Positions 27,989 through 64,000 of a stretch of DNA of 64,000 nt are shown in pieces. Origin of the DNA: Octopus vulgaris (Eukaryota). Every line of letters begins with the position of its first letter. The stretch's first letter is position 1. The notes beneath the pieces are model-generated. The model was not told where the DNA came from and did not search any database. It worked only from the letters and a program-made list of their open reading frames with translations. Where the stretch lies: NCBI GenBank assembly GCA_951406725.2, contig OX597832.1, positions 44,454,001 to 44,518,000 on the forward strand. Reading direction: 5' to 3'. The translations under genes were made by a program, and so were the position numbers.

Positions 27989-28533
27989 ATCGTATACGAT
28001 AGTGTCTAGAGAATATAGAATATGAAAAGAAAATATACAAAATAAATTCTGGCAAACATTTCAGTATATTGTAGAAGACATCTATGAAAGCAATGTCTGA
28101 AATCTCTTCTGTTCAAACTTTAAATTTAACTTTTACATGAACATATTTTGTACGGTAACACTCAATATGATTTAAATAGATTTTAAAATAATTAAAAATT
28201 TATAAGATTTAATAATATAACCATTTCTTTCTTCCATTCTTTATGTGGCATTTGGCACATACCTTAAAATGATGTTGAAATGTTTTAGCTTAAATACGGT
28301 GATTATTTACAAAATAGATTTGAACATTATGTATCACATTTAGAATACAGTTAGGAAACAATAAAATTTGGGTTTTTGCATAAATCATTTCAGACCATTT
28401 TCATACAGAATTCTTAGATCACATTAGTGTGTTTTACACTCTCTTGAAATATTGAACAGGAACTGTTTTTCAGGAAATTCTTTTGCATTTCATCTCTTCA
28501 TATTGTATATTCTTTAGATGCCACGGAAATAAT

Positions 28534-29566
28534 ATGGACTAAGCAAAGAAACAAGACTTCGGTAACCTCGCTGCTTCAGTTGATTATTGTACAAAGAGTC
28601 TTTTTCAAGCTGTGTCTACAGGAACCGTTGAAAATGTTTTCATGTCACCATTCAATGTTGCTACCGTTTTATCAATGGTTTATTCTGGAGCAAGACAAAA
28701 CTCTGCCAAACAATTGAAAAGATTTTGAAAATAACTTTAAATACAGATCCTGTAATTTGAGGTTTTAAAGAATATTTTTCACTTTTGAAACACTCAGATG
28801 AACTTATTGCATTGAATTCAGTCAATTGTTTTAGTGCCAATGAAAAATTTCGTATTTCAGAAGACTAAAAGAACATTATTGCAAAAAATTTCTTTTCAGA
28901 TATTGAAAATGTAGACTTCATGACAAATATTGGAAAAGGAAGAATTAATATTAATTACAATGTTGTAAGACAACAAGATGCTAGAATTGTTAGTATGCTG
29001 GGCAAAATACTTAGTAGCAATTTGTCCATCTTGACATTCTGGAGTTGACATTGTCATCCTTTAGGGTTTGACAAAATAAGTACCAATTGAGCACTTGTGT
29101 TGCTGTAATTGATTTACCCCTACAATTAAATTGCTGGCCTTGCACCAAAATTTGAAAGCAGTTTTAATGATTGTGCTGAAAATAACACAAATAACATAAT
29201 TACCGATCTCTTAACAATTTGAAGTTGACACCTCAGTCGGTTCTAGTTCTTATTAATGCTGTGTACTTGAAAAGAATATGGCATAAAATATTCCTATAAA
29301 AAGCAACATCATCTAGAAAGACAATTTTAGCACAAAAATAAGCAACAGCTCTACAGTTGTTGAGTTACCTTATATAGGAAAAGCATTTAGTATGTTTGTA
29401 ATTCTTCCCAATGAAATCAATGGCCTTAATGCTTTAGTGAAGGAGATTAATGCTCAATTTCTCAAAGATATTGTAGACAGAAAAGGGATTTGAAATGATG
29501 CTTCTAGAATTAAATATGCCAAAATTTCGTTTAGAGAGTAGTTTTAAGTTGGGTGATGTTTTGAAA
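28534..29566 (+). pseudogene. Inverted serpin pseudogene, 3'-truncated before the RCL, SINE inserted at ~28965-29160
   Basis: Nucleotide similarity to the serpin CDS on the + strand with many stops and indels; ORF 29495 MMLLELNMPKFRLESSFKLGDVLK. Confidence 0.9.
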
Positions 29567-32210: not shown

Positions 32211-33374
32211 TTATGTTGTAGGATTTGTCACTTTACCAATGAAATGGATCATTTTAGTTTGGTTGTCAACAATTAAAAATGTGAATGGATGATTGACGTC
32301 AAAATCCATACAATTTATAAAAAATCGTCCTGACACTTTCCTCCTTTCCATTCCACTTGCAGCAGCAGCTTCCGTTCCTTCTTCATTAACATTAACAAAT
32401 GCTTTATGAAACATTTCACTGGCATAAGTATTCTTCTTACCATCACTCATTCCAGATAAATCTGCTTTTCGAGAATCAAAAATATCAGAGAGTCCAAGCT
32501 TTTTCAAAACATCACGCAACTTAAAACTACTCTCTAAACGAAATTTTGGCATATGTAAATCTAGACCCATCATTTGAAATCCTTTTCTGTCTACAATGTC
32601 TTTGAGAAATTCAGCATTAATCTCCTTCTCTAAAGCAGCAAGACCATTGATGTCATTGGGAAGAATTACAAACATACTAAATGCTTTTCCTCTATAAAAT
32701 AACTCAACAACTTTATAGTTGTTGCTTATTTTTGTATTAAAAGCTTCAGATATATACATAAAATCATGAGATACAGTCTTCTCAGAGCGTAAATAAAACT
32801 TTCTAGATGATGTTGCTTGTTCTAGGAATTTTTCAGCCCACATTCCTTTGAAGTATACAGCATTAATAAGAACTAGAACCGTCAGAGTGGTCAAACTTCC
32901 ACTTGGTAACAGATCGGTAATTTTGTTATTTGTGTTATTCTTAACCCAATCATTAATAGTTATTCTTGTCTTCTCAGTATTTGTTATAAAGTCTACATTT
33001 TCAATATCTGAAAAGAAATATTTTACCATGTTGTTCTTGTAGTCTTCTGAAATAGGGAATATTTCACTGGCATACAAACGATTCACTAAATTGGATGTGA
33101 CAAGTTTATCTGAGTTTTTCAAAAGTGAAAAATATTCTTTAAAAGCTAAAGCTACAGAATCTGGATTTGATGTTATCTTCAAAACATTTTCAAACTGTTT
33201 GGCAGAGTTTTGTCTTGCTCCCAAATAAACCATTGATAAAACAGTAGCAACACTGAATGGTGACATGAAGACATTTTCATTGGTTCCTGTAGCCACAGCT
33301 TGGTAAAGACTGTTTGTAAAATAATCAATTGAAGCAGCAAGGTTACCGATGTCTTGTTTTTCTGCTGAGTCCAT
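32211..33374 (-). CDS. Serpin copy 5 (intact, 387 aa); basic RCL AS-GMERRKV|SGRFFINC
   Basis: Complete ORF; start placed at the conserved MDSAEK Met just downstream of the acceptor-like sequence. Confidence 0.95.
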   Translation of the reverse strand: MDSAEKQDIGNLAASIDYFTNSLYQAVATGTNENVFMSPFSVATVLSMVYLGARQNSAKQFENVLKITSNPDSVALAFKEYFSLLKNSDKLVTSNLVNRLYASEIFPISEDYKNNMVKYFFSDIENVDFITNTEKTRITINDWVKNNTNNKITDLLPSGSLTTLTVLVLINAVYFKGMWAEKFLEQATSSRKFYLRSEKTVSHDFMYISEAFNTKISNNYKVVELFYRGKAFSMFVILPNDINGLAALEKEINAEFLKDIVDRKGFQMMGLDLHMPKFRLESSFKLRDVLKKLGLSDIFDSRKADLSGMSDGKKNTYASEMFHKAFVNVNEEGTEAAAASGMERRKVSGRFFINCMDFDVNHPFTFLIVDNQTKMIHFIGKVTNPTT

Positions 33375-33885
33375 ATTGTATTTGGTAGTGTCTAGAGAAT
33401 ATAGAATATGAAGAGAAAACATACGAAATAAATTCTTGCAAACATTTCAAAATAATTTATTAGACATTACTGTAATTAAAGACATCTATGAAAGCAAAGT
33501 CTGAAATCTCTTCTGATCAAACTCTAATATTAACTTTTACATGAACGTATTTCTTAACATAACACAGAGTTGATGTGTTTTAAACACTTTTTAAAATAAT
33601 TAAAAATTTATATATACCATTTTTTCTCCATTATTTATCTGATATTTGGCACATATCTTAAAAGTTTCATTTATAAGATGATGTTGGAACTTATCCATGT
33701 TTACATTTCTGAGACAAATTTGAATGGAGCAGGTTTAGTTTTCATTTTTTGCATATATGGTAAGATAAGGTATCAAGTACAATGATATACTCCACCTGCT
33801 GAGAGCCTGGCCAAATACTTGCAACAAAATGACATCTTCACAAAAGGCCTCCAAGTGCCTTGAGGTGATGTTGAACTAATTAGTG

Positions 33886-42458: not shown

Positions 42459-43613
42459 CTATATCGTGGGGTTTGTTACTTTACCAATGAAATGGATCAT
42501 TTTAGTTCGGTCATCAACAACTAAAAACGTGAATGGGTGATTGACATCAAATTGCATCCCAATTCTTGACATATAATTTGAGACCACCATTCCACTTGCA
42601 GCAGCAGCTTCCGTTCCTTCTTCATTAACATCAACAAATGCTTTATGAAACATTTCACTGGCATAAATATTCTTCTCACCACCAGTCATTCCAGATAAAT
42701 CAGCTTTTTGAGGATCAAAAATATCAGGGAGTCCAAGTTTTTTCAAAACTGCACCCAACTGAAAACTACTCTCTAAACGAAATTTTGGCATATTTAATTC
42801 TAGAAGCATCGTTTGAAATCCTTTTCTGTCAACAATGTCTTTGAGAAATTTAGCATTAATCTCCTTCTCTAAAGCAGCAAGACCATTGTTTTCATTGGGA
42901 AGAATTACAAACATACTAAATGCTTTTCCAATATAAGGTAACTCAACGACTTTATAGTTGTCGCTTATTTTTGTATTAAAATCTTCAGATTTATACATAA
43001 AATCATGAGATACAGTCTTGTCAGAGCTTAAATGAAACTTTCTAGATGTTGTTGCATGTTCTGGGAATTTTTTAGCCCACGTTCCTTTAAAATACACAGC
43101 ATTAATAAGAACTAGAACCGATTGAAGTGTCAAACTTCCACTTGGTAACAGATCGGTAATTTTGTTATTTGTGTTATTCTTTACCCAATCATTAATAGTT
43201 ATTCTTGTTTTCTCAGCATTTGTTATGAAATCTACATTTTCAATATCTGAAAAGAAATATTTTACCATGTTGTTCTTGTAGTCTTCAGAAAAGGGGAATT
43301 TTTCACTGGCATACAAACGATTCACGGAATTGAATGTGACAAGTTTATCTGAGTTTTGCAAAAGTGAAAAATATTCTTTAAAAGCCAAAGCTACAGAATC
43401 TGGATTTGATGTTATCTTCAAAACATTTTCAAACTGTTTGGCAGAGTTTTGTCTTGCTCCCAAATAAACCATTGATAAAACAGTAGCAACACTGAATGGT
43501 GACATGAAGACATTTTCATTGGTTCCTGTAGCCACAGCTTGATAAAGACTGTTTGTAAAATAATCAATTGAAGCAGCAAGGTTACCGATGTCTTGTTTCT
43601 CTGCTGAGTCCAT
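42459..43613 (-). CDS. Serpin copy 6 (intact, 384 aa); RCL AS-GMVVSNY|MSRIG
   Basis: Complete ORF with all serpin motifs. Confidence 0.95.
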   Translation of the reverse strand: MDSAEKQDIGNLAASIDYFTNSLYQAVATGTNENVFMSPFSVATVLSMVYLGARQNSAKQFENVLKITSNPDSVALAFKEYFSLLQNSDKLVTFNSVNRLYASEKFPFSEDYKNNMVKYFFSDIENVDFITNAEKTRITINDWVKNNTNNKITDLLPSGSLTLQSVLVLINAVYFKGTWAKKFPEHATTSRKFHLSSDKTVSHDFMYKSEDFNTKISDNYKVVELPYIGKAFSMFVILPNENNGLAALEKEINAKFLKDIVDRKGFQTMLLELNMPKFRLESSFQLGAVLKKLGLPDIFDPQKADLSGMTGGEKNIYASEMFHKAFVDVNEEGTEAAAASGMVVSNYMSRIGMQFDVNHPFTFLVVDDRTKMIHFIGKVTNPTI

Positions 43614-44469
43614 ATCGTATATTGTCGTATCTGGAGAATATAGAATATGAAGAGAAAATATACAAAATAAATTCTTATAAACATTTGAGGCTACTGACCA
43701 GATCTCTAGATGGTGCAAAGTCCCCTTTCATCCCAAGGTAACATGGTGGTGGAACAATGTAGTTGACAGGGTCATTAGGGAAAAGAAACAGGCTTGGAAA
43801 GACTGGAAGAACGGTGGTAGCAGGGAAATGTATCAGATCGCCAGAAGGGAAACTAGGAGACAGGTTTACTTAGTCAGAGGGGAAGCAGATAAGAAAAAAA
43901 TTTGTCAATGTTCTGTGTCGTGAGGACCAAAGACTTAAAGTGTTTTGTGTTGCAAGACAGTGTGTGAGAGAGAATCATGATGTTATAGGAGAGATATACA
44001 CACACACAAATACATGCATGCATGTACACGTACACACACACACACACACACTCATGCATGCATATTTTTATTATGAGTTCTGTATAAATATTTCAAAATG
44101 TTGAGTTAGTATGAAGGACGTTGAGTAATTCTGCTTCAAAAAAATTAGACGAAACACAAAACAATAATAAAATAACTTGTTGGATTTATGAATGTTAAAA
44201 ATCTCCAAACAATTTCAGATAATAGATGAACCGAGAACAATGGAATATTACATAAATGGAATAATGATTAATACTGACTATACACTGAAACAGACCTAAA
44301 CACACAGAGGTTCTTGCTAGCAGTATGAGAAGACAATTGCTTTTTAATGTTTACATGACTCTTGGCATGCAGAGCAAAGTGGTTAGTGGCATGTACTGGA
44401 TGTACATGAGAGCCAAGAAGAATTGCGAAGCATTGAAGTCACAAAGGATTATAAGAAGCACCAAAGAGA

Positions 44470-45573: not shown

Positions 45574-46422
45574 AAGGCTTCCGTGTGCCTGGAAGTGATG
45601 TTGAACTGATTAGTATAATATCTACCTATACCTGATCATGTAAACCTCGACTCAACAGTATCCTGAACACTCCTATTCAGATTATTTTCCTAAGAGAAAT
45701 TTATACAGAAATTTATTCAACAGATTGGTTTCTTTTTTTTTTAAGAAGGTAGGATATGATTTTAGGGAGATTCAGTTGTTATTCTAACTGGTCTATTGAC
45801 AACGTAGGGTTTCTCTCGTTGACTCACATCTGGATTTTGATGTCAGCCAAGTTTTCTTAAAGAATGAAAGCATTCGAAACTGAACACGTTGTTAATAAAT
45901 AATTTCCATTGTTTTACTGCATACGAAAAACGTTCTTTTGAATAACTTGTTTTACTTTATGTAAAAAGGGAAAGTGAAAAATATTCTAATCTGTTGTGGA
46001 GAAGTTTTGTTGTGATTTGATTTTCAAGTAAAGCATAACAAAACCATGGAAGATCATGAATTGTGGATAGAATTTGTTTGGTAAGTTCGACCGTTGTCGC
46101 AATGAATGTGAAGTAATTAGTGTGGCGAGTTACTTCCCTTGTTGATAAAAATAAAATGGTAAATCCTTAAATACTTAAAAATGTTTCAGCTCTAGGCTGC
46201 GGCCATACTGTGGCACCACTGTTGAATGAGCTACACTAGCATGTGAAACCACCTCTGATACGTGCCACTTGATCAACAAGGGAGTTCAATGCCGCTGCCC
46301 GCATCTGTGTTTCCTGCCGAAAGGTAGGTTCATTTGGGACCCCGACATGAAGAGATCCAGTTAGAACGTCATACACTAAGATCGTTCAACCACTTTATTC
46401 TACAGATGCCACGGAATATAAT

Positions 46423-46619
46423 ATAGACTCAGCAAAGAAAGAAGACATCGGTAACCTCACTGCTTCAGTTGATTATTGTACAAAGAGTCTTTTTCAAGCT
46501 GTGACTACAGGAACCGTGGAAACTGTTTTCATCTCACCATTCAGTGTTACTACTATTTTATTGATGGTTCATTCTGGAGCAAGATAAAACTCTGTCAAAC
46601 AGTTTGAAAATATTTTGAA
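46423..46619 (+). pseudogene. Short inverted serpin 5' fragment (start codon mutated to ATA)
   Basis: ATAGACTCAGCAAAGAAAGAAGACATCGGTAACCTC matches the serpin N-terminal coding sequence. Confidence 0.85.
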
Positions 46620-47197
46620 TATATAGTATGTTGATTGATAACTTTTCAAAAGTTTTGTAGTAACACCACAATTATTAAATAAATGTAATTTTTTAATGAA
46701 GATCTAAGACTAAAATACCAGAGACTATCAAGAGGGCTGAAGAAGTTGAAATGTCAATATTTGGAACAAAGCTATTAAAAGCCAGATGCAATTAATGCAT
46801 ACATTAAAATGGAATATTTACTGAGATGCTTTATTAATATAAACAGAAATAAAAACATACAAGCATTGATTTCTCTTTATTTAACCAGTAAATAATGTTT
46901 ACAGGCAACAATAAGTATATTGTTAAAATAATAAACTTGCTAAGAAAAGACACTTTAAAAAGTGTAATATTTTTCTGTCAATATATGGCAAGTACAAATT
47001 GATAATATTGATTTAGATTAATGTGGTATTATAATATATCATTGAATAGATATGACCTTGGTTCTACATAGTTACAATTATAATGTCCTAAGTCATTTTA
47101 CTAAAAACAATTCTAAATAAATTTGCTCAGTTACATTCTCCACATAATACAATGTAGTATTCCATAAGAGGGAAATCTTTGACAGGGCAATATCATC

Positions 47198-48350
47198 TTA
47201 TGTTGTAGGATTTGTTACTTTACCAATGAAATGGATCATTTTAGTTCGGTTATCAACAATTAAAAATGTGAATGGGTGATTGACCTCAAAATCCATACCA
47301 ATTTGTGCGGAAACTGCCATCACGACCATTCCAGTTGCAGCAGCAGCTTCCGTTCCTTCTTCATTAACATCAACAAATGCTTTATGAAACATTTCACTGG
47401 CATAAATATTCTTCTCACCACCAGTCATTCCAGATAAATCAGCTTTTTGAGGATCAAAAATATCAGAGAGTCCAAGCTTTTTCAAAACATCACCCAACTG
47501 AAAACTACTCTCTAAACGAAATTTTGGCATATTTAATTCTAGAAGCATCGTTTGAAATCCTTTTCTGTCCACAATGTCTTTGAGAAATTGAGCATTAATC
47601 TCCTTCTCTAAAGCAGCAAGACCATTGATTTCATTTGGAAGAATTACAAACATACTAAATGCTTTTCCAATATAAGGTAACTCAACAACTTTATAGTTGC
47701 TGCTTATTTTTGTATTAAAATCTTCAGATATATACATAAAATCATGAGATACAGTCTTGTCAGAGCTTAAATAAAACTTTCTAGATGATGTTGCTTGTTC
47801 TGGGAATTTTTCAGCCCACATTCCTTTAAAGTACACAGCATTAATAAGAACTAGAACCGACTGAGGTGTCAAACTTCCACTTGGTAACAGATCAGTAATT
47901 TTGTTATTTGTGTTATTCTTTACCCAATCATTAATAGTAATTCTTGTCTTCTCAGCATTTGTTATGAAGTCTACATCTTCAATATCTGAAAAGAAATATT
48001 TTACCATGTTGTTCTTGTAGTCTTCTGAAATAGGGAATTTTTCATTGACGCACAAACGATTCACTGAATTTAATGTGACAAGTTTCTCTGAGTTTTTGAG
48101 AAGTGAAAAATATTCTTTAAAAGCTAAAGCTACAGAATCTGGATTTGATGTTATCTTCAAAACATTTTCAAACTGTTTGGCAGAGTTTTGTCGCTCCCAA
48201 ATAAACCATTGATAAAACAGTAGCAACACTGAATGGTGACATGAAGACATTTTCATTGGTTCCTGTAGCCACAGCTTGATAAAGACTGTTTGTAAAATAA
48301 TCAATTGAAGCAGCAAGGTTACCAATGTCTTGTTTCTTTGCTGAGTCCAT
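47198..48350 (-). pseudogene. Serpin copy 7 with 2-bp deletion at ~48192 (possibly an assembly error); RCL AT-GMVVMAV|SAQIG
   Basis: Span is 1153 bp versus 1155 bp for intact copies; TTTTGTCGCTCCC versus TTTTGTCGCGCTCCC in copy 11. Confidence 0.85.
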
Positions 48351-48896
48351 ATTGTATACGATAGTGTCTAGAGAATATAGAATATGAAGAGAAAATATAC
48401 AAAATAAATTCTGGCAAATATTTCAGTACATTGTAGAAGACATCTATGAAAGCAATGTCCGAAATCTCTTCTGTTCAAACTTTAAATTTAACTTTTACAT
48501 CAACATATTTCGTACGGTAACACTCAATATGATTTAAATAGATTTTAAAATAATAAAAAATTTATAAGATTTAATGATATAACCATTTCTTTCTTCCATT
48601 CGTTATCTGGCATTTGGAACATACCTTAAAATGATGTTGAAATGTTTTAGCTTAAATACGGTGATTATTTTCAAAATAGATTTGAACATTATGTATTACA
48701 TTTAGAATACAGTAAGGAAACAATAAAATTTGGGTTTTTGCATAAATCATTTCAGACGATTTTCATACAGAATTCTTAGATCACATTAGTGTGTTTTACA
48801 CTCTCTTGAAATATTAAACAGAAACTGTTTTTCAGGAAATTCTTCTGCATTTCATCTCTTCATATTGTATATTCTTCAGATGCCAGGGAAAACAAT

Positions 48897-49308
48897 ATGG
48901 ACTCAGCAAAGAAACAAGACATCGGTAACCTCGCTTCTTCAGTTGATTACTGTACAAACATTCTTTTTCAAGCTTTGTCTATAGGAACCGTTGAAAATGT
49001 TTTCATGTCACCATTCAATGTTGCTACCGTTTTATCAATGGTTTATTCTGGAGCAAGACAAAACTCTGCCAAACAATTTGAAAATAACTTTAAATACAGA
49101 TCCTGTAATTTGGGGTTTTAAAGAATATTTTTCACTTTTGAAACACTCAGATGAACTTATTGCATTGAATTCAGTTAATTGTTTTAGTGCCAATGAAAAA
49201 TTTCGTATTTCAGAAGACTAAAAGAACATTATTGCAAAATATTTCTTTTCAGATATTGAAAATGTAGACTTCTTAAGAAATGTTGAAAAAGGAAGAATTA
49301 ATATTAAT
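48897..49308 (+). pseudogene. Inverted serpin 5' fragment followed by a truncated SINE
   Basis: ORFs 48897 and 48991 translate to the serpin N-terminus with a frameshift and stop. Confidence 0.9.
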
Positions 49309-50208
49309 TACCATGTTGTAAGGCAACGAGATGCTAGAATTGTTAGTATGCTGGGCAAAATACTTAGTAGCACTTTGTCCATCTTTACATTCTGGTGTTG
49401 ACATTGTCATTCTTTTGGGATTGGAAAAATAAGTACCAATTGAGCACTTGTGTTGCTGTAATTGATTTACCCCTACAATTAAATTAAATCTCATTACTGA
49501 TTCTCGGTCTAATTAAAGGTATAACATTTCGGAAAATATATCAGACATTGTCATTGCTACCTTCAGAATGCCAAACTTAATACATAATTAATCAGAGAGT
49601 TTGTAACGTAACCACATATATGCATGGTATGAATATGGTACATTGGCTGTTAACTTTTCAAAAGTTTTGTAACACCACAATTATTGAATCAATGTAATTT
49701 TTTGATCAAGATCTAAGACTAAAATACCAGAGACTATCAAGAGGGCTGAAGAAGTTGAAATGTCTACATTTGAAACAAAGCTAATAAAAGCCAGATGCAA
49801 TTAACACATACATTAAAATGGAATATTTACTGAGATGCTTTATTAATATAAACAGAAATAAAAACATACAAGCATTGATTTCACTTTATTTAACCAGTAA
49901 ATAATGTTTACAGGCAACAATAAGTATATTCTTAAAATAATAAGCTTGCTAAGAAAAGACACTTTAAAAAGTGTCAAATTTTTCTGTCAATGTATGGCAA
50001 GTACAAATTCATAATATTGATTTAGATTAATGTGGTATTATAATATATAAATGAATAGATATGACCTTGGTTCTACACGATTTCAACTGTAATGTCCTCA
50101 GTCATTTTACTAAAAAAACGATTCTAAAAATATTTGCTCAGTTACATTCTCCACATAATATAATGTAGTATTCCATAAGAGGGAAATCTTTGACAGGGCA
50201 ATATCATC

Positions 50209-51363
50209 TTATGTTGTAGGATTTGTTACTTTACCAATGAAATGGATCATTTTAGTTCGGTTGTCAACAATTAAAAATGTGAATGGGTGATTGACATCAA
50301 AATCCATACCAATTTGTGCTGACATTAACGTCATGACCATTCCAGTTGCAGCAGCAGCTTCTGTTCCTTCTTCATTAACATCAACAAATGCTTTATGAAA
50401 CATTTCACTGGCATAAATATTCTTCTCACCACCAGTCATTCCAGATAAATCAGCTTTTAGAGGATCAAAAATATCAGAGAGTCCAAGCTTTTTCAAAACT
50501 TCACCCAACTGAAAACTACTCTCTAAACGAAATTTTGGCATATTTAATTCTAGAAGCATCGTTTGAAATCCTTTTCTGTCTATAATATCTTTGAGAAATT
50601 GAGCATTAATCTCCTTCTCTAAAGCAGCAAGACCATTGATGTCATTGGGAAGAATTACAAACATACTAAATGCTTTCCCTATATAAGGTAACTCAACCAC
50701 TTTATAGTTGTCGCTTATTTTTGTATTAAAATCTTCAAATTTATACATAAAATCATGAGATACAGTCTTGTCAGAGCTTAAATAAAACTTTCTAGATGAT
50801 GTTGCTTGTTCTGGGAATTTTTCAGCCCACATTCCTTTAAAGTACACAGCATTAATAAGAACTAGAACCGACTGAGGTGTCAAACTTCCACTTGGTAACA
50901 GATCAGTAATTTTGTTATTTGTGTTATTCTTTACCCAATCATTAATAGTTATTCTTGTCTTCTCAGCATTTGTTATGAAGTCTACATTTTCAATATCTGA
51001 AAAGAAATATTTTACCATGTTGTTCTTGTAGTCTTCTGAAATAGGGAATTTTTCATTGGCACACAAACGATTCACTGAATTGAATGTGACAAGTTTATCT
51101 GATGTTTTCAAAAGTGAAAAATATTCTTTAAAAGTCAAAGCTACAGAATCTGGATTTGATGTTATCTTCAAAACATTTTCAAATTGCTTGGAAGAGTTTT
51201 GTCTTGCTCCCAAATAAACCATTGATAAAACAGTAGCAACACTGAATGGTGACATGAAGACATTTTCATTGGTTCCTGTAGCCACAGCTTGATAAAGACT
51301 GTTTGTAAAATAATCAATTGAAGCAGCAAGGTTACCAATGTCTTGTTTCTTTGCTGAGTCCAT
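50209..51363 (-). CDS. Serpin copy 8 (intact, 384 aa); RCL AT-GMVMTLM|SAQIG
   Basis: Complete ORF with all serpin motifs. Confidence 0.95.
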   Translation of the reverse strand: MDSAKKQDIGNLAASIDYFTNSLYQAVATGTNENVFMSPFSVATVLSMVYLGARQNSSKQFENVLKITSNPDSVALTFKEYFSLLKTSDKLVTFNSVNRLCANEKFPISEDYKNNMVKYFFSDIENVDFITNAEKTRITINDWVKNNTNNKITDLLPSGSLTPQSVLVLINAVYFKGMWAEKFPEQATSSRKFYLSSDKTVSHDFMYKFEDFNTKISDNYKVVELPYIGKAFSMFVILPNDINGLAALEKEINAQFLKDIIDRKGFQTMLLELNMPKFRLESSFQLGEVLKKLGLSDIFDPLKADLSGMTGGEKNIYASEMFHKAFVDVNEEGTEAAAATGMVMTLMSAQIGMDFDVNHPFTFLIVDNRTKMIHFIGKVTNPTT

Positions 51364-51909
51364 ATTGTATACGATAGTGTCTGGAGAATATAGAATATGA
51401 AGAGAAAACATACAGAATAAATTCTGGCAAACATTTTAGTATATTGTAGAAGACATCTATGAAAGCAATGTCTGAAATCTCTTCTGTTCAAACTTTAAAT
51501 CTAACTTTTACATGAACATATTTTGTACGGTAACACTCAATATGATTTAAATAGATTTTAAAATAATTAAAAATTTATAAGATTTAATAATATAACCATT
51601 TCTTTCTTCCATTCTTTATCTGGCATTTGGCACATACCTTAAAATGATGTTGAAATGTTTTAGCTTAAATACGGTGATTATTTTCAAAATAGATTTGAAC
51701 ATTATGTATTACATTTAGAATACAGTAAGGAAACAATAAAATTTGGGTTTTTGCATAAATCATTTCAGACGATTTTCATACAGAATTCTTAGATCACATT
51801 AGTGTGTTTTACACTCTCTTGAAATATTAAACAGAAACTGTTTTTCAGGAAATTCTTCTGCATTTCATCTCTTCATATTGTATATTCTTCAGATGCCAGG
51901 GAAAACAAT

Positions 51910-52322
51910 ATGGACTCAGCAAAGAAACAAGACATCGGTAACCTCGCTTCTTCAGTTGATTATTGTACAAACAGTCTTTTTCAAGCTGTGTCTACAGGAA
52001 CCGTGGAAAATGTTTTCATGTCACCATTCAATGTTGCTACCGTTTTATCAATGGTTTATTCTGGAGCAAGACAAAACTCTGCCAAACAATTTGAAAATAA
52101 CTTTAAATACAGATCCTGTAATTTTGGTTTTTAAAGAATATTTTTCACTTTTGAAACACTCAGATGAACTTATTGCATTGAATTCAGTTAATTGTTTTAG
52201 TGCCAATGAAAAATTTCGTATTTCAGAAGACTAAAAGAACATTATTGCAAAATATTTCTTTTCGGATATTGAAAAGGTAGACTTCATGACAAATATTGAA
52301 AAAGGAAGAATTAATATTAATT
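51910..52322 (+). pseudogene. Inverted serpin 5' fragment followed by a truncated SINE
   Basis: ORFs 51910 and 51878; same lesions as the 48897 fragment. Confidence 0.9.
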
Positions 52323-53222
52323 ACCATGTTGTAAGGCAACGAGATGCTAGAATTGTTAGTATGCTGGGCAAAATACTTAGTAGCACTTTGTCCATCTTTA
52401 CATTCTGGGGTTGACATTGTCATTCTTTTGGGATTGGAAAAATAAGTACCAATTGAGCACTTGTGTTGCTGTAATTGATTTACCCCTACAATTAAATTAA
52501 ATCTCTTTACTGATTCTCGGTCTAATTAAAGGTATAACATTTCGGAAAATATATCAGACATTGTCATTGCTACCTTGAGAATACCAAACTTAATACATAA
52601 TTAATCAGAGAGTTTGTAACGTAACCACATATATGCATGGTATGAATATGGTACATTGGCTGTTAAGTTTTCAAAAGTTTTGTAACACCAAAATTATTGA
52701 ATCAATGTAATTTTTTAATGAGGATCCAAGACTAAAATACCAGAGACTATCAAGAGGGCTGAAGAAGTTGAAATGTCTACATTTGAAACAAAGCTAATAA
52801 AAGCCAGATGCAATTAACACATACATTAAAATGGAATATTTACTGAGATGCTTTATTAATATAAACAGAAATAAAAACATACAAGCATTGATTTCACTTT
52901 ATTTAACCAGTAAATAATGTTTACAGGCAACAATAAGTATATTCTTAAAATAATAAGCTTGCTAAGAAAAGACACTTTAAAAAATGTCAAATTATTATGT
53001 CAATGTATGGCAAGTACAAATTCATAATATTGATTTAGATTAATGTGGTATTATAATATATAAATGAATAGATATGACCTTGGTTCTACACGATTACAAC
53101 TGTAATGTCCTCAGTTATTTTACTAAAAAAACGATTCTAAAAAATATTTGCTCAGTTACATTCTCCACATAATACAATGTAGTATTCCATAAGAGGGAAA
53201 TCTTTGACAGGGCAATATCATC

Positions 53223-54377
53223 TTATGTTGTAGGATTTGTTACTTTACCAATGAAATGGATCATTTTAGTTCGGTTATCAACAATTAAAAATGTGAATGG
53301 GTGATTGACATCAAAATCCATACCAATTTGTGCTGACATTAACGTCATGACCATTCCAGTTGCAGCAGCAGCTTCTGTTCCTTCTTCATTAACATCAACA
53401 AATGCTTTATGAAACATTTCACTGGCATAAATATTCTTTTCACCACCAGTCATTCCAGATAAATCAGCTTTTAGAGGATCAAAAATATCAGAGAGTCCAA
53501 GCTTTTTCAAAACTTCACCCAACTGAAAACTACTCTCTAAACGAAATTTTGGCATATTTAATTCTAGAAGCATCGTTTGAAATCCTTTTCTGTCTATAAT
53601 ATCTTTGAGAAATTGAGCATTAATCTCCTTCTCTAAAGCAGCAAGACCATTGATGTCATTGGGAAGAATTACAAACATACTAAATGCTTTCCCTATATAA
53701 GGTAACTCAACCACTTTATAGTTGTCGCTTATTTTGGTATTAAAATCTTCAGATATATACATAAAATCATGAGATACAGTCTTGTCAGAGCTTAAATAAA
53801 ACTTTCTAGATGATGTTGCTTGTTCTGGGAATTTTTCAGCCCACATTCCTTTAAAGTACACAGCATTAATAAGAACTAGAACCGACTGAGGTGTCAAACT
53901 TCCACTTGGTAACAGATCAGTAATTTTGTTATTTGTGTTATTCTTTACCCAATCATTAATAGTTATTCTTGTCTTCTCAGCATTTGTTATGAAGTCTACA
54001 TTTTCAATATCTGAAAAGAAATATTTTACCATGTTGTTCTTGTAGTCTTCAGAAATAGGGAATTTTTCATTGGCACACAAACGATTCACTGAATTGAATG
54101 TGACAAGTTTATCTGATGTTTTCAAAAGTGAAAAATATTCTTTAAAAGCCAAAGCTACAGAATCTGGATTTGATGTTATCTTCAAAACATTTTCAAATTG
54201 CTTGGAAGAGTTTTGTCTTGCTCCCAAATAAACCATTGATAAAACAGTAGCAACACTGAATGGTGACATGAAGACATTTTCATTGGTTCCTGTAGCCACA
54301 GCTTGATAAAGACTGTTTGTAAAATAATCAATTGAAGCAGCAAGGTTACCAATGTCTTGTTTCTTTGCTGAGTCCAT
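53223..54377 (-). CDS. Serpin copy 9 (intact, 384 aa); RCL identical to copy 8
   Basis: Complete ORF; differs from copy 8 at about 3 residues. Confidence 0.95.
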   Translation of the reverse strand: MDSAKKQDIGNLAASIDYFTNSLYQAVATGTNENVFMSPFSVATVLSMVYLGARQNSSKQFENVLKITSNPDSVALAFKEYFSLLKTSDKLVTFNSVNRLCANEKFPISEDYKNNMVKYFFSDIENVDFITNAEKTRITINDWVKNNTNNKITDLLPSGSLTPQSVLVLINAVYFKGMWAEKFPEQATSSRKFYLSSDKTVSHDFMYISEDFNTKISDNYKVVELPYIGKAFSMFVILPNDINGLAALEKEINAQFLKDIIDRKGFQTMLLELNMPKFRLESSFQLGEVLKKLGLSDIFDPLKADLSGMTGGEKNIYASEMFHKAFVDVNEEGTEAAAATGMVMTLMSAQIGMDFDVNHPFTFLIVDNRTKMIHFIGKVTNPTT

Positions 54378-54923
54378 ATTGTATACGATAGTGTCTGGAG
54401 AATATAGAATATGAAGAGAAAACATACAAAATAAATTCTGGCAAACATTTCAGTATATTGTAGAAGACATCTTTGAAAGCAATGTCTGAAAGCTCTTCTG
54501 TTCAAACTTTAAATTTAACATTTACATGAACATATTTTGTACGGTAACACTGAATATGATTTAAATAGATTTTAAAATAATTAAAAATTTATAAGATTTA
54601 ATAATATAACCATTTCTTTCTTCCATTCTTTATCTGGCATTTGGAACATACCTTAAAATGTTGTTGGAAGGTTTTAGCTTAAATACGGTGATTATTTTCA
54701 AAATAGATTTGAACATTATGTATCACATTTAGAATACAGTAAGGAAACAATAAAATTTGGGTTTTTGCATAAATCATTTCAGACCAATTTCACATAGAAT
54801 TCTTAGATCACATTAGTGTGTTTTACACTCTTTTGAAATGTTAAATAGAAACTGTTTTTCAGGAAATTCTTCTGCATTTCATCTCTTCATATTGTATATT
54901 CTTCAGATGCCAGGGAATACAAT

Positions 54924-56231
54924 ATGGACTCAGCAAAGAAACAAGACATCGGTAACCTCGCTTCTTCAGTTGATTATTGTACAAACAGTCTTTTTCAAGC
55001 TGTGTCTACAGGAACCGTGGAAAATGTTTTCATGTCACCATTCAGTGTTGCTACCGTTTTATCAATGGTTTATTCTGGAGCAAGACAAAACTCTGCCAAA
55101 CAATTTGAAAATATTTTGAAAATAACTTTAAATGCAGATCCTGTAATTTTGGTTTTTAAAGAATATTTTTCACTTTTGAAACACTCAGATGAACTTATTG
55201 CATTGAATTCAGTTAATTGTTTTAGTGCCAATGAAAAATTTTGTATTTCAGAAGACTAAAAGAACATTATTGCAAAATATTTCTTTTCGGATATTGAAAA
55301 TGTAGACTTCATGACAAATATTGAAAAAGGAAGAATTAATATTAATTACAATGTTGTAAGGCAACGAGATTCTAGAATTGTTAGTATGCTGGGCAAAATA
55401 CTTAGTAGCACTTTGTCCGTCTTCACATTCTGGGGTTGACTTTGTCATCGTTTTGGGTTTGACAAAATAAGTACCAATTGAGCAGTTGTGTTGCTGTAAT
55501 TGATTTACCCCTACAATTAACCTGCTGGACTTACACCAAAATTTGAAAGCAGTTTTAATGATTGAGCTGAAAGTAACACAAATAACAAAATTACCGATCT
55601 GTTACCAAGTGGAAGTTTGACACCTCAGTCGGTTCTAGTTCTTATTAATGCTGTATACTTTAAAGGAATATGGGGTGAAGTATGCCCAGAACTACCAACA
55701 TCATCTAGAAAGACAATTTTAGCACAAAAATAAGCAACAGCTCTACAGTTGTTGAGTTACCTTATATAGGAGAAGCATTTAGTATGTTTGTAATTCTTCC
55801 CTATGAAATCAATGGCCTTAATGCTTTAGTGAAGGGTAAGTAATTCCCAATTTCTCAAAGGCATTGTAGACAGAAAAGGATTTGAAATGATACAGCTAGA
55901 ATTAAATATGCCAAAATTTCGTTTAGAGAGTAGTTTTCAGTTGGGTGATGTTTTGAAAAAGCTTGGACTCCCTGATATTTTTGATCCTCTAAAAGCTGAT
56001 TTATCTGGAATGACTGGTGGTGAGAAGAATATTTATGCCAGTGAAATGTTTCATAAAGCATTTGTTGATGTTAACGAAGAAGGAACAGAAGCTATGGCTG
56101 TAATTAGAGAAGGATGATATTTTCATCAGCATACCTGAGGCAATGTTAATCAAGCATTCACAATTATAATTGTTGACAACTGAGGTATAATGATCCATTT
56201 CATTGGTAAAGTTACAAACCCTACAATATAA
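54924..56231 (+). pseudogene. Near full-length inverted serpin pseudogene with SINE insertion (~55355-55550) and a degenerate RCL (EEGTEAMAVIREG*)
   Basis: ORFs 54924 and 55887, and a terminal CATTTCATTGGTAAAGTTACAAACCCTACAATATAA (HFIGKVTNPTI*). Confidence 0.92.
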
Positions 56232-58681
56232 GATATTGCCCTGTCAAAGATTTTCCTCTTATGGAATATTACATTGCAATACATAGAGAATGTAACTGAG
56301 CAAATTTTATCCAACATCCTCGTTTTCAAATAAGTCTTGCAGTAAGTACTGAGCCCGAAGATTGCTTGGAGACATATGGCATGTTATATAAATCTGCCAA
56401 ATTAATGTACCTCTACAGTCTGAAAACGTTAGTAGCTATTTTATAAATTTCTGTACATACTAAATGATATATTATCATCATCATTTAGCGTCCGCTTTCC
56501 ATGCTAGCATGGGTTGGACGGTTCAACTGGGGTCTGTGAAGCCAGAAGGCTGCATGAGGCCCAGTCTGATCTGGCATTGTTTCTACGGCTGGATGCCCTT
56601 CCTAATACCAACCACTCCGTGAGTGTAGTGGGTGCTTTATATATATAATATATATATATACAATTGTCATTAATTGTGTTGATGATGCAGAGTATCACCT
56701 ACATTGCTAGAAATTAGAGCTAAAAGCCCTGATAGCTGCAGGAAGCACATGTCTATACACTGAGAGGGGAAATAACCACCCTACAAAGAGTGGGATCACC
56801 ATACTAGTTTCGTTTTGCTTGGAATTAAAGCCCATCAATTGTGCCTACTCCATTGCTTGATGGTTTGGATAAATCCCAGCTGTCAGTATATAGAATTTAC
56901 CATACGAATCAATGCATGATTCAGCAAAATGGTAATGTGAAAATTATAAGAGGACAAAGGTAGCTAAATGTAATATAAAAGCAAAAATGAAAGATTCAGT
57001 TGTCACTAACTGTGATTGAGAGTACAGGGTAGCTTTCACGTTACTAGAAATAAGAGCTAAAATACCTTACAGCCATCTACAGTTCTGCTTCATCTGAAGA
57101 CCTTGGTACAATCAAGATGACTTACCCTACTTTGTATAAAGCATCTTTACAAGATTCCTTCTTACTCTGGAGCAATGTCCCTCAGAAACTGCACATATTC
57201 CTCTAATCTGCACAATCCAACTATAGGAAAACTGAGCTTTCTTATTGTTTCCACCAATGGCATACCCTCTTAAAGATTTTTAAATCACTCATTACTGATA
57301 TGCAAACCAAGGCAAATTCATGCGTAACCTGACACCATGAAGACTTTCTTCTTTTCTCTACAACAATATTTGTGACATTTAAATTTCCCTCTAAGAAAAA
57401 AATATATTTGTGTTGAAAATATATTCTCAAACCATATTTTCTTTTAATTTATTTAAGTTAAGATGAATATTATATTACTTTATCTATGAGGTCTGATCAA
57501 AAATTATCAGGCCTTGTGCTACAAAAAAAAAACTACAACATATTAATTCAGCATTTAATCCACTTTGAAGTAGTCCCATTCTGAAGCCACACAAATGACC
57601 CAACATCATTTCCATTGATGGAAGCATTATGTATCATACACAGTATAAACACATCAAAAAAGATCAATTTACAGCAGTATATATCTCCAGATAATACACT
57701 ATAAGATCTTGTTGCATTTAGAAATATAATATGTATCAAAGGCAGATGAAAATTGTTCTAGCTGCAACTGGTAAGTATGCTAAATTCATTTCTGCCTCAT
57801 CTAAGCAGGTGGTTGGCTATGAGTATATAGTATTGACAACATATATACACAAATGGATGTGTACATATGTTTATTCAAATATTTTTTTATATGGAAATGT
57901 TGGTTTGTAGATATTAAATGAAACCTCATTCCTGGAATTTCAGTAACACCAACAAAACTTAAAAAGTATATAAGAATTTCTTTACTGATTCTTGGTCTAA
58001 TTAAAGGTATAACATTTCAGAAAAAATATTAGACATTTTCTTTTCTAACTTCAGAATGCCAAACTTACTACATTATTAATTACAGAAGTTGTAACATAAC
58101 CACATGTATGCATAGTATGTATATGTATGTGGTATGTTGGTTGATTACTTTTCAAAAGTTTTGTAACACCAAATTACATCAATGTAATTTTTTAATGAAG
58201 ATCTAAGACAAAAATACCAGAGATTAACAAGAGGGCTCAAAATATCGAAACGTCTACATTTCAAAGAAAGCTAATAAAAGCCAGATGCAATTAACACATG
58301 CATTAAAATGGAATATTTACTGAGATGCTTTATTAATATAAACAGAATCAAAACTTACAGGCATTGATTTCACTTTATTTAACCAGTAAATAATGTTTAC
58401 AGGCAACAATAAGTATATTCTTAAAATAGTAAACTTGCTAAGAAAAGACACTAAAAAGTGTCGTATTTTTCTGTCAATATATGGCATATACAAATTGATA
58501 ATATTGATTTAGATTAATGTGGTATTATAATATATCAATGAATAGATATGACCTTGGTTCTACACAATTACAATTATAATGTCCTCAGTCATTTTGCTAA
58601 AAATATTTGTTCAGTGACATTCTCCACATAATACAATGTAGTATTCCATAAGAGGGAAATCTTTGACAGGGCAATATCATC

Positions 58682-59836
58682 TTATGTTGTAGGATTTGTT
58701 ACTTTACCAATGAAATGGATCATTTTAGTTCGGTTATCAACAATTAAAAATGTGAATGGGTGATTGACATCAAATTTCATACCAATTTTTGCACAGAATC
58801 CCACCATGACCATTCCAGCTGCAGCAGCAGCTTCCGTTCCTTCTTCATTAACATCAACAAATGCTTTATGAAACATTTCACTGGCATAAATATTCTTCTC
58901 ACCACCAGTCATTCCAGATAAATCAGCTTTTAGAGGATCAAAAATATCAGGGAGTCCAAGCTTTTTCAAAACTTCACCCAACTGAAAACTACTCTCTAAA
59001 CGAAATTTTGGCATATTTAATTCTAGAAGCATCGTTTGAAATCCTTTTCTGTCCACAATATCTTTGAGAAATTGAGCATTAATCTCCTTCTCTAAAGCAG
59101 CAAGACCATTGATTTCATTTGGGAAGAATTACAAACATACTAAATGCTTTTCCTATATAAGGTAACTCAACAACTTTATAGTTGTCGCTTATTTTTGTAT
59201 TAAAATCTTCAGATATATACATAAAATCATGAGATACAGTCTTGTCAGAGCTTAAATAAAACTTTCTAGATGATGTTGCTTGTTCTGGGAATTTTTCAGC
59301 CCACATTCCTTTGAAGTATACAGCATTAATAAGAACTAGAACCGATTGAGGTGTCAAACTTCCACTTGGTAACAGATCAGTAATTTTGTTATTTGTGTTA
59401 TTCTTACCCAATCATTAATAGTTATTCTTGTCTTCTCAGCATTTGTTATAAAGTCTACATTTTCAATATCTGAAAAGAAATATTTTACCATGTTGTTCTT
59501 GTAGTCTTCTGAAATAGGGAATTTTTCACTGGCATACAAACGATTCACTGAATTGAATGTGACAAGTTTATCTGAGTTTTTCAAAAGTGAAAAATATTCT
59601 TTAAAAGCCAAAGCTACAGAATCTGGATTTGATGTTATCTTCAAAACATTTTCAAACTGTTTGGCAGAGTTTTGTCTTGCTCCCAAATAAACCATTGATA
59701 AAACAGTAGCAACACTGAATGGTGACATGAAGACATTTTCATTGGTTCCTGTAGCCACAGCTTGATAAAGACTGTTTGTAAAATAATCAATTGAAGCAGC
59801 AAGGTTACCGATGTCTTGTTTCTCTGCTGAGTCCAT
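58682..59836 (-). pseudogene. Serpin copy 10 with a -1 (~59405) and a +1 (~59120) indel, possibly assembly errors; RCL AA-GMVMVGF|CAKIG
   Basis: Three ORF pieces spanning exactly 1155 bp; no nonsense codons in the serpin frames. Confidence 0.85.
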
Positions 59837-60383
59837 ATCGTATATGATAGTGTCTAGAGAATATAGAATATGAAGAGAAAATATACAAAATAAATTCTGG
59901 CAAATATTTCAGTATATTGTAGAAGACATCTATGAAAGCAATGTCTGAAATCTCTTCTGTTCAAACTTTAAATCTAACTTTTACATGAACATATTTTGTA
60001 CAGTAACACACAAGGTGTTTAAAACAGTTTTTATAATAATTAAAAATTTATAAAGATTTAATGATATAACCATTTCTTTCTTCCATTCTTTATCTGGCAT
60101 TTGGAACATACCTTAAAATGTTGTTGGAAGGTTTTAGCTTAAATACGGTGATTATTTTCAAAATAGATTTGAACATTATGTATCACATTTAGAATACAGT
60201 AAGGAAACAATAAAATTTGGGTTTTTGCATAAATCATTTGAGACCATTTTCAAACAGAATTCTTAGATCACATTAGTGTGTTTTACACTCTCTTGAAATA
60301 TTAAACAGAAACTATTTTTCAGGAAATTCTTCTGCATTTCATCTCTTCATATTGTATATTCTTCAGATGCCACGGAATAGAAT

Positions 60384-60808
60384 ATGGACTTAGCAAAGAA
60401 ACAAGACTTCGGTAACCTCGCTGCTTCAGTTGATTATTGTACAAAGAGTATTTTTCGAGTTGTGTCTACAGGAACCGTGGAAAATGTTTTCATGTCACCA
60501 TTCAGTGTTGCTACCGTTTTATCAATGGTTTATTCTGGAGCAAGACAAAACTCTTCCAAACAATTTGAAAATATTTTGAAAATAACTTTAAATACAGATC
60601 CTGTAATTTGAGGTTTTAAAGAATATTTTTCACTTTTGAAACACTCAGATGAACTTATTGCATTGAATTCAGTCAATTGTTTTTGTGCCAATGAAAAATT
60701 TCGTATTTCAGAAGACTAAAAGAACATTATTGCAAAATATTTCTTTTCAGATATTGAAAATGTAGATTTCATGAGAAATGTTGAAAAAAGAAGGATTAAT
60801 ATTAATTA
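60384..60808 (+). pseudogene. Inverted serpin 5' fragment followed by a truncated SINE
   Basis: ORF 60384 MDLAKKQDFGNLAASVDY..., followed by stops. Confidence 0.9.
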
Positions 60809-61707: not shown

Positions 61708-62862
61708 TTATGTTGAAGGATTTGTTACTTTACCAATGAAATGGATCATTTTAGTTCGGTTGTCAACAATTAAAAATGTGAATGGGTGATTGACATCAAA
61801 ATCCATACCAATTTGTGCTGACAATGCCATCATGACCATTCCAGTTGCAGCAGCAGCTTCCGTTCCTTCTTCATTAACATCAACAAATGCTTTATGAAAC
61901 ATTTCACTGGCATAAATATTCTTCTCACCACCAGTCATTCCAGATAAATCAGCTTTTAGAGGATCAAAAATATCAGGGAGTCCAAGCTTTTTCAAAACAT
62001 CACCCAACTGAAAACTACTCTCTAAACGAAATTTTGGCATATTTAATTCTAGAAACATCGTTTCAAATCCTTTTCTGTCTATAATGTCCTTGAGAAATTC
62101 AGCATTAATCTCCTTCTCTAAAGCAGCAAGACCATTGATTTCATTTGGAAGAATTACAAACATACTAAATGCTTTTCCAATATAAGGTAACTCAACGACT
62201 TTATAGTTGTCGCTTATTTTTGTATTAAAATCTTCAGATATATACATAAAATCATGAGATACAGTCTTGTCAGAGCTTAAATAAAACTTTCTAGATGATG
62301 TTGCTTGTTCTGGGAATTTTTCAGCCCACGTTCCTTTGAAGTATACAGCATTAATAAGAACTAGAACCGATTGAGGTGTCAAACTTCCACTTGGTAACAG
62401 ATCAGTAATTTTGTTATTTGTGTTATTCTTTACCCAATCATTAATAGTTATTCTCGTCTTTTCAGCATTTGTTATAAAGTCTACATTTTCAATATCTGAA
62501 AAGAAATATTTTACCATGTTGTTCTTGTAGTCTTCTGAAGTAGAGAATTTTTCATTGGCATACAAACGATTCACTGAATTGAATGTGACAAGTTTCTCTG
62601 AGTTTTTGAGAAGTGAAAAATATTCTTTAAAAGCCAAAGCGACAGAATCTGGATTTGATGTTATCTTCAAAACATTTTCAAACTGTTTGGCAGAGTTTTG
62701 TCGCGCTCCCAAATAAACCATTGATAAAACAGTAGCAACACTGAATGGTGACATGAAGACATTTTCATTGGTTCCTGTAGCCACAGCTTGATAAAGACTG
62801 TTTGTAAAATAATCAATTGAAGCAGCAAGGTTACCGATGTCTTGTTTCTTTGCTGAGTCCAT
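61708..62862 (-). CDS. Serpin copy 11 (intact, 384 aa); RCL AT-GMVMMAL|SAQIG
   Basis: Complete ORF with all serpin motifs. Confidence 0.95.
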   Translation of the reverse strand: MDSAKKQDIGNLAASIDYFTNSLYQAVATGTNENVFMSPFSVATVLSMVYLGARQNSAKQFENVLKITSNPDSVALAFKEYFSLLKNSEKLVTFNSVNRLYANEKFSTSEDYKNNMVKYFFSDIENVDFITNAEKTRITINDWVKNNTNNKITDLLPSGSLTPQSVLVLINAVYFKGTWAEKFPEQATSSRKFYLSSDKTVSHDFMYISEDFNTKISDNYKVVELPYIGKAFSMFVILPNEINGLAALEKEINAEFLKDIIDRKGFETMFLELNMPKFRLESSFQLGDVLKKLGLPDIFDPLKADLSGMTGGEKNIYASEMFHKAFVDVNEEGTEAAAATGMVMMALSAQIGMDFDVNHPFTFLIVDNRTKMIHFIGKVTNPST

Positions 62863-64000
62863 ATTGTATACGATAGTGTCTAGAGAATATAGAATATGAA
62901 GAGAAAATATACAGAATAAATTCTGGCAAATATTTCAGTATATTGTAGAAGACATCTATGAAAGCAATGTCTGAAAGCTCTTCTGTTCAAACTTTAAATT
63001 TAACTTTTACATGAACATATTTTGTACAGTAATACTCAATATGATTTTAAAATAATAAAAAAATTATAAGATTTAATAATATAACCATTTCTTTCTTCCA
63101 TTCTTTATCTGGCATTTGGCACATATCTTAAAATGATGTTGGAAGGTTTTAGTTTAAATACAAACAGTTGAATATTTGAGATTTATCATAAAACCTGAGA
63201 TGGTCTCAGGTCGGAAAAAATTAAGGTTTGACAATATGTTATTTTTAAGATCTTTAATTCACTTTTAAATTATCATGTTAAGATTATTTTTGATAAAGCA
63301 AAATAGATGTAATACATCTGAATGCTAAATGCCTAAATGTCTGAGATGAATGTTGAAGATTATTTTCAATGTGAGGTTTATAGTCCAAAAAGTTATAATC
63401 TTATCTGAATTACATTGATATTCGGTATAGGTGGTTGTCCTCAAAAATAGAAGCTCAAATTGAACTCCGACGTCTGGCAGCTGACTTGGCAGACACCCAT
63501 AAAGTTATTAACCATCTTACAAACAGTAACTCTTTTATTGGCAGAATCTTACATTCTGAGCAAGAAGTAGCTTTCCTCCAAAATACCTATTTCTTTATTA
63601 CCCACAAGGGGCTAAACATAGAGGGGACAAACAAGGACAGACAAACGAATTAAGTCGATTACATCGACCCCAGTGCATAACTGGTACTTAATTTATAGAC
63701 CCCGAAAGGATTTCGCCCGGCATACTAACGGTTCTGCTAGATCGCACACACACACATACACACACACATAAAGGGCTTCTTTCAGTTTCTAGTTGTCAAA
63801 TCCTCTCACAAGGATTTGGTTGGCCTGAGGCTTATAGTATAAAACACTTGCCTAAGGTGCCACACAGTGAGATTGAACCCAGAACCATGAGGTTGGAAAG
63901 CAAACTTCTTACTAGACAGCCATGCCTGTATCTATTTAGTGGATGTGTTATAAATTCCATGTCCCAAACTTTGTTCTGTGTGCAACAGTGTCAATATATG

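Follow-up and report, generated by a model that had tools for sequence, protein, structure and literature searches.

The 64,000 nucleotides of Octopus vulgaris DNA analyzed here (hereafter, the window) contain an array of serpin genes, in which tblastn and self-comparison identified 11 copies on the minus strand and 6 pseudo-copies on the plus strand. On balance, we find it probable that the 11 minus-strand copies, each a single-exon cassette, are alternative terminal exons of one transcription unit for secreted serpins, whose leader exon would be situated beyond position 64000, on the right of the array, and that the inverted copies go back to one old inversion and have decayed neutrally, the hairpins that they could form over the cassettes' splice acceptors being a by-product. 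This explanation rests on gene models for the sharing of the leader and on the sequence of the window for the anatomy of the cassettes and the lack of a leader between them. The original prediction had centered on the hairpins; as the gene models stand, the array of whole-domain cassettes behind a shared leader is likely the more valuable finding.

Each cassette contains in one exon a phase-1 acceptor, an entire serpin domain, which includes a reactive loop particular to the cassette, a stop codon, and a poly(A)-like hexamer. A pyrimidine tract and an AG stand exactly 17 nt 5' of the ATG in all ten full copies, phase 1 being kept throughout, and the resulting 17-nt linker reads in frame as DTxxY[N/D], as it does in the leader-bearing proteins of the databases. 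In cassette 8 (50209..51380, minus strand), for example, the pyrimidine tract and acceptor AG (51382-51381) occupy 51381..51410 and are followed by the phase-1 linker, the ATG at 51363, and an intact 384-aa serpin (PF00079, E 4e-110) with a predicted P1-P1' of Met-Ser, while an AATAAA lies at 49885..49890, 319 nt past the stop. All four full proteins searched matched PF00079 over their full length (E 4e-110 to 1e-109), and a cassette serpin aligned with antithrombin-III over residues 9-383. The small-residue hinge EGTEAAAA precedes the reactive loop in 11/11 cassettes and is degenerate in the full-length inverted copy, p9; by domain and hinge the cassettes would thus be inhibitory-type serpins, with covalent protease inhibition as their putative activity. 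The reactive loop is hypervariable, with 34% identity versus 91% elsewhere (14 of the 15 pairs of intact copies). An AATAAA or ATTAAA is located 208-354 nt past the stop in 11/11 copies, which hexamers are candidate poly(A) signals in an AT-rich DNA for which no null was computed.

The leader, as it appears in the database proteins, is a 23-residue hydrophobic stretch followed by six linker residues. Its best 11-residue hydropathy is 2.0-2.8, versus 0.9 for a leaderless start, from which we infer a putative signal peptide. In the O. vulgaris model CAI9736913.1 the leader precedes a body that agrees with copy 11 in 376/384 aa. Within the 64-kb window tblastn did not find the leader, the best ungapped match being 9/23, and a hidden Markov model (HMM) of six leaders reached at best 8 bits there, versus 55-60 for close controls. 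Because the leader of CAI9736913.1 continues into copy 11 and is absent from the window, its exon should be situated to the right of 64000. In O. sinensis, residues 1-25 are identical among the isoforms X1, X2, and X3; X3 and X1 present 30 differences over residues 26-413, X3 being nearest to copy 6 and X1 to copy 11, and the X3 linker already departs from that of X1 in the 17 nt with which the exon opens. Two O. bimaculoides proteins have the leader in common and differ at 30 positions. Furthermore, copy 6 is intact and constrained, with a ratio of nonsynonymous to synonymous substitution rates (dN/dS) of 0.16-0.25, although the proximal upstream DNA that it has in common with other copies amounts to only ~76 nt, which circumstance we counted in favor of a shared leader.

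Several observations weigh against a leader shared by the cassettes. The junction evidence consists throughout of automated gene models, and X1-X4 were taken as one gene from their names, their identical leader, and their consecutive accessions, while a second O. sinensis gene carries the same name. O. sinensis X2 equals X1 over residues 1-246, differs only at 247-398, and may be a chimera, and the RefSeq N-terminus of the second O. bimaculoides body (XP_014777248.1) is a different one. Of 16 O. sinensis proteins in this clade, only 3 have the leader in question; 11 begin at an internal Met, and the remaining two have another leader and an odd N-terminus, respectively, additional leader types being present in the cluster or clade. 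As to the position of the leader exon, the distant Argonauta leader scores 9.4 bits with the HMM, so that a very divergent leader could escape detection, and the search for a generic combination of ATG, hydrophobic stretch, and phase-1 donor gave a sole candidate, at 30210 on the minus strand, with a weak donor and within an insertion that only unit 4 has. Finally, a donor-like 9-mer at -274 in 5/5 paired copies only would allow local starts, as would the TATA-like word that copy 8 has at -216.

The search for transcript-derived leader junctions matched only RefSeq/UniProt models (1/3 and 3/4 candidates). The readable supplements of PMC9699675, its main long-read annotation aside, gave no match for elastase or serpin, and those of PMC9712504 gave no match. 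That the leader-sharing models are annotation artefacts, arising from reads mis-mapped among near-identical paralogs or from collapsed leader duplicates, seems to us quite improbable. Such errors are conceivable in an assembly of polished nanopore reads (10.1101/2023.05.16.540928) whose annotation links up to six cassettes into a 1736-aa protein, and X2 appears chimeric; the linkers of X3 and X1, however, are not the same, the exons differing in their opening 17 nt, so that reads over the two junctions would be distinguishable, and the pattern recurs in the annotations of two species. With respect to the linked cassettes, the last 41 nt of each one (e.g., 50209-50249) contain a phase-1 donor-like site close to the end of the coding exon, through which the O. 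vulgaris annotation chains them into multi-serpin proteins of 571, 1126, and 1736 aa; this chaining is probably an artefact, though the phase fits.

An ordinary tandem cluster is the alternative to which we concede the most serious weight, while still considering it unlikely. In such a cluster the leader would belong only to copy 11, the other copies being separate genes for cytosolic serpins of 384-387 aa with local promoters, and the paired copies would start in the spacer so that the inverted copy would not be co-transcribed. The 11 of 16 O. sinensis models that begin at an internal Met, several of them with more than one transcript accession, conform to that arrangement, as do the kilobases of upstream DNA common to copies 1, 2, 5, and 6; but X3 joins the leader to a linker and body of the copy-6 type, the acceptor phase is kept in 10/10 copies, and the deadness of 6/6 inverted copies would be left unexplained. 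The donor-like 9-mer of the paired copies (51632..51640, minus strand, with its G at 51637 in unit 8, and also 28262, 48624, 54651, and 60111) also counts toward local starts, the window's minus strand containing only 10 sites of this type in all; copies 1, 2, 5, and 11 have a G>A change, and copy 6 lacks the region. The site nevertheless represents one inherited event. The TATA-like word, in turn, occurs within 550 nt in 3/5 copies scanned, with none in copies 6 and 11, against an expectation of 0.76 per 550 nt. The original prediction had made the co-transcription of both arms depend on a start on the right-hand side of the inverted copy; that premise gains support from a leader exon that is apparently beyond 64000 and shared according to the gene models, while the donor-like site leaves a start in the spacer conceivable. 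One O. sinensis model opens with a 22-codon exon that is the antisense of the p7 arm at 48850-48785 (22/22 residues). By this exact match the spacer/arm unit exists in O. sinensis; the model begins inside the arm on the strand of the gene, which also favors the premise, although it may owe that start to ab initio extension. Two related elements lie upstream of copies 5 and 6, of ~430-570 bp with TG...CA ends and 71% identity (33873-34447 and 44472-44903), which by eye resemble solo long terminal repeats and are possible local promoters.

Leader-bearing models and local promoters would be reconciled if the leader were trans-spliced to cassettes transcribed from their own promoters, in the manner of Drosophila mod(mdg4), where a common exon and many variable 3' exons have the same layout (PMC12692577). 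We hold this to be very improbable, since the intact cassettes are all on one strand and 6/6 inverted copies are dead, as cis-splicing predicts.

Under the shared-leader explanation, a long pre-mRNA would be transcribed from right to left across the array, a single cassette would receive the leader by splicing, and its poly(A) site would terminate the RNA, the products being secreted inhibitors that differ in their P1 residue (Leu, Phe, Met, Val, Tyr, or Cys). Splicing in cis could not connect the leader to an inverted cassette, which would have been dead from the start, by which we propose to explain why all six inverted copies are dead; it would then have been carried along in a tandem unit of ~3 kb. 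According to this model, whenever an mRNA takes its cassette from further left, the inverted arms are co-transcribed as part of an intron. As the polymerase read through, the antisense arm would be expected to pair with the acceptor and first 420 nt of the nearest cassette, which pairing would lower the use of the masked cassette and offer a substrate to ADAR.

The five gene/inverted-copy pairs of the original prediction were confirmed, with ATG-to-ATG distances of 546, 547, 547, 547, and 548 bp in copies 4, 7, 8, 9, and 10, respectively. These pairs do not make up the full set, since a sixth inverted fragment had been missed: p6 (46393..46623, plus strand), which is devoid of most of the acceptor tract, retaining ~13 nt of it plus ~200 coding nt, and is separated from copy 6 by 2810 bp. 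The others, all on the plus strand, are p4 (28461..29566, cut at coding nt ~870), p7 (48822..49308, paired with copy 7), p8 (51835..52321, with its ATG at 51910, an 11-nt deletion, and stops), p9 (54849..56308, full length and reaching into the 3' untranslated region, UTR), and p10 (60323..60806, paired with copy 10). All six are broken, form a single clade (support 100/100), and are 82-85% identical to any gene copy. Their dN/dS values are 0.77-0.93 among themselves, versus 0.16-0.28 between genes (4-5 pairs each), and 0.54-0.89 in gene-versus-pseudo-copy comparisons (4-5 pairs), where by our own arithmetic ~0.6 would be expected if one lineage had always been neutral; these values fit neutral evolution of the inverted copies and are consistent with neutrality from birth. 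A retrocopy of a spliced mRNA was ruled out as their source, as ~57 nt of intron are kept before the AG. In p9, the patches at coding nt 450-524 and 825-974 are 99-100% identical to genes, and p4 has another patch of high gene identity at nt 675-870; the 95-100% identity of the patches in p4 and p9, versus ~85% otherwise, suggests gene conversion between inverted repeats.

At nt ~423 the arm is cut short by a single insertion of ~220 bp, resembling a short interspersed nuclear element (SINE), which is located there in 5/5 copies (52312..52495, plus strand, at the end of the p8 arm, and also 28946-29165, 49299-49482, 55337-55556, and 60797-60980); it has 64% identity (E ~1e-9) to repeats at 5518, 18845, and 36881. 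That three different deletion states should all spare the arm had been taken as informative, which argument was not upheld: there are two deletion events, one common to p7, p8, and p10 (the same breakpoint, inherited) and the other the cut of p4, plus one full-length copy (54849-56308), and the probability is 0.43-0.71 that two left breakpoints placed at random leave the arm intact. Moreover, p6 has lost most of the arm.

The fold-back itself was borne out by prediction. In unit 8, whose predicted pre-mRNA structure spans 50941..52321 on the minus strand, the inverted arm (52321-51835) pairs with the gene arm (51437-50941), the two matching with 82.9% identity over 498 columns. Folding of the minus strand from 50940 to 52325, the check proposed for the original prediction, gave -607.7 kcal/mol with a stem that encloses the acceptor; over the same span the five paired units range from -581 to -634 kcal/mol, and the four unpaired copies from -286 to -310 kcal/mol. 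The dimensions foreseen, a ~450-bp hairpin with a ~450-nt loop, should be corrected to a stem of ~490 bp and a loop of ~400 nt. The claim that the 3' splice site is covered also stands at the level of prediction, the pairing probability being ~1 for the acceptor AG (51382-51381) and for the greater part of the pyrimidine tract. The gene arm of unit 8 has 422/498 bases paired, the longest helices measuring 47, 44, and 28 bp, and each gene/inverted pair contains 2-4 exact-match runs of at least 21 nt. No homology extending the stem into the loop was found (score 25; 93/500 shuffles equal or higher). The folding results thus make it very likely that the duplex forms if both arms are on one RNA. 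The window has further inverted repeats (83-89%) at 17418-18415, 10556-10847, and 23536-24654, which under the shared-leader model would be intronic double-stranded RNA (dsRNA) too.

Whether such a duplex has been maintained is a separate matter, and the hairpin looks like a structure whose sequence bears no sign of it. Maintenance would be expected if the inverted copies were RNA regulators that mask acceptors, direct N-terminal editing, or yield small interfering RNAs, thus tuning cassette use, an explanation that we regard as improbable. The stable fold predicted over the acceptor, the fixed spacing in 5 units, the occurrence of spacer plus arm in O. sinensis (22/22 residues), and the long exact runs all invite it; moreover, exon skipping through an intragenic inverted duplication has precedent (PMC6549551), and editing in octopus takes place mostly in introns and 3' UTRs, although it very rarely alters splice sites (PMC9699675). 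Against these points, G-U bias is absent over the five units (wobble-permitting versus mismatch transitions, 17-24 vs. 21-24, p 0.63-1.0), and folding of the plus strand is equally good or better in 5/5 of them. Arm and loop diverge alike (variable columns 38/486 vs. 38/396 in the five units, p=0.40), and the SINE-like insertion has 20/174 variable columns (p=0.16). Partner specificity is weak, in that only 1/5 arms has its own partner as the best among nine gene arms, and the stretches that match genes at 99-100% fall outside the retained arm. A scan of 46000-64000 against Rfam found no family at the gathering score. With 38 variable columns, these tests have low power, and weak selection would be compatible with them. 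Nevertheless, four sequence tests for a maintained duplex, on wobble bias, arm and loop divergence, choice of partner, and deletions, having been negative, the fallback offered with the original prediction, that the inverted copy is a passenger of duplication, provides the best fit. A bolder variant, which appears to us decidedly improbable, would have the inverted pseudo-cassettes act as selector strands in a unit of one promoter, one signal-peptide exon, and at least a dozen whole-domain exons, the pairing register and melting by ADAR choosing the acceptor; the predicted duplex energies of an antisense arm with the cassette just passed or with the next to emerge differ by no more than ~35 kcal/mol.

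Arrays of paralogous variable exons like that of the octopus are known from clustered protocadherin and UGT1A, where the 3' part is shared and the promoters vary, and from Anopheles GSTD1, where the shared piece is a folded domain. The Dscam docking-selector system demonstrates that RNA pairing can steer exon choice, through elements that are short and conserved, unlike the octopus arms. In loci of the mod(mdg4) type the functional variable exons may be on either strand, which feature is not found here, 6/6 inverted octopus copies being broken. Another comparison is offered by the insect genes of the serpin-1 type, with their alternative C-terminal exons, to which the serpin-1 of Manduca sexta reportedly belongs. 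Alternative C-terminal exons are common in insect serpin genes (192/731), PpSerpin-1 of Pteromalus being spliced at the hinge (PMC10513286). The octopus array would resemble this insect type in the common 5' part, the tandem alternative terminal exons, the diversity centered on the loop, and the existence of forms both with and without a signal peptide. In the insects, however, splicing takes place where the hinge ends, so that variation is confined to the C-terminus with the loop (PMC10513286), whereas in the octopus, a mollusc, the junction is at the end of the predicted signal peptide, the acceptor preceding the first serpin Met by 17 nt, and the variable exon comprises all of the 384-aa domain. 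As in the insect type, every octopus cassette (11/11) has its own stop and a candidate hexamer for its 3' end. Gene models of two species show what would be a shared 5' exon joined to paralogous terminal exons. The mod(mdg4) locus of Drosophila also joins common 5' exons to one of many variable 3' exons, but does so by trans-splicing from independent promoters (PMC12692577), whereas in the octopus the strand pattern favors cis-splicing and the signal peptide alone would be shared. In the MANBA case (PMC6549551) an inverted exon and its splice site occur in the same pre-mRNA, as they would here, and a hairpin has been proposed to force skipping; that allele, though, is a new, fully complementary disease allele, whereas the octopus copy is old, 83% identical, fixed, multiplied, and beside terminal exons. 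Our literature search outside subscription journals found no paper on this octopus locus. A hemocyte transcriptome contains six serpin transcripts, whose gene structure the accessible text does not describe (PMC4199593); the word "serpin" is absent from the accessible text of the assembly paper (10.1101/2023.05.16.540928), and that of PMC12758981 has nothing on a shared-leader cassette layout.

If the shared leader is real, genes now named as cytosolic "leukocyte elastase inhibitor-like" would be secreted isoforms of one gene, and the diversification of serpins by terminal-exon choice would extend from the loop-only exons of insects to whole-domain cassettes in cephalopods. The array would also raise a splicing question, namely how the leader bypasses up to ten near-identical strong acceptors, while the hairpins offer a natural comparison of paired with unpaired copies for the effects of dsRNA on splicing and editing in an animal of high ADAR activity. 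If, on the contrary, the leader serves copy 11 alone, the locus would amount to a common tandem cluster in which a pseudogene is carried as a passenger.

The ATGs of the minus-strand copies are at 1969, 14297, 27988, 33374, 43613, 48350, 51363, 54377, 59836, and 62862, the internally deleted copy being near 25043. Reading frames are intact in six copies (1, 5, 6, 8, 9, and 11), and three proteins of the window match database entries exactly, while six pseudo- or partial open reading frames (ORFs) of the window had no entry in the protein collection searched. Besides cassette 8, the array comprises, on the minus strand, cassettes 1 (809..1986, intact, 386 aa, predicted P1 Cys), 2 (13136..14314, frameshifted, predicted P1 Cys), 3 (24868..25043, internally deleted, its acceptor and linker being joined directly to the hinge region), 4 (26835..28005, with a premature stop and a frameshift), 5 (32211..33391, intact, 387 aa, predicted P1 Val), 6 (42459..43630, intact, predicted P1 Tyr, the nearest to the leader-bearing isoform X3), 7 (47198..48367, with a 2-nt deletion that the O. 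sinensis model implies as well, predicted P1 Val), 9 (53223..54394, intact, predicted P1 Met), 10 (58682..59853, frameshifted in this assembly, predicted P1 Phe), and 11 (61708..62879, intact, predicted P1 Leu, the copy joined to the leader in CAI9736913.1). The P1 residues were assigned by counting from the hinge, by a rule that we assume to hold here. In cassette 3, what remains of the exon is the loop and C-terminus, with a loop like that of copies 4 and 6, and the acceptor is retained. As the assembly was built from polished nanopore reads (10.1101/2023.05.16.540928), single-base frameshifts may be assembly errors, although the frameshift of copy 7 is implied by O. sinensis as well. Broken cassettes number 3/5 among the paired and 2/6 among the unpaired copies, which numbers are too small to interpret.

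Three related remnants (3412-4452, 15750-16772, and 35029-35820) resemble a DDE transposase; two transposase-like ORFs of these remnants had no match in a Pfam search. Duplications at 96-97% identity link 1-5098 with 12328-17417, 19245-25029 with 36914-42620, and 46621-52495 with 49633-55520, and would represent recent segmental or tandem events, though some could be uncollapsed haplotypes. Beyond the window, entries of the same contig (CAI9736902.1, 903.1, 905.1, and 906.1) include more serpin copies, a second leader type that resembles that of Argonauta, and a 76-aa ORF with the degenerate ending of p9 (24/25 residues); because of these further copies and the p9-like ORF, both the serpin array and the pseudo-copy lineage extend past the window.

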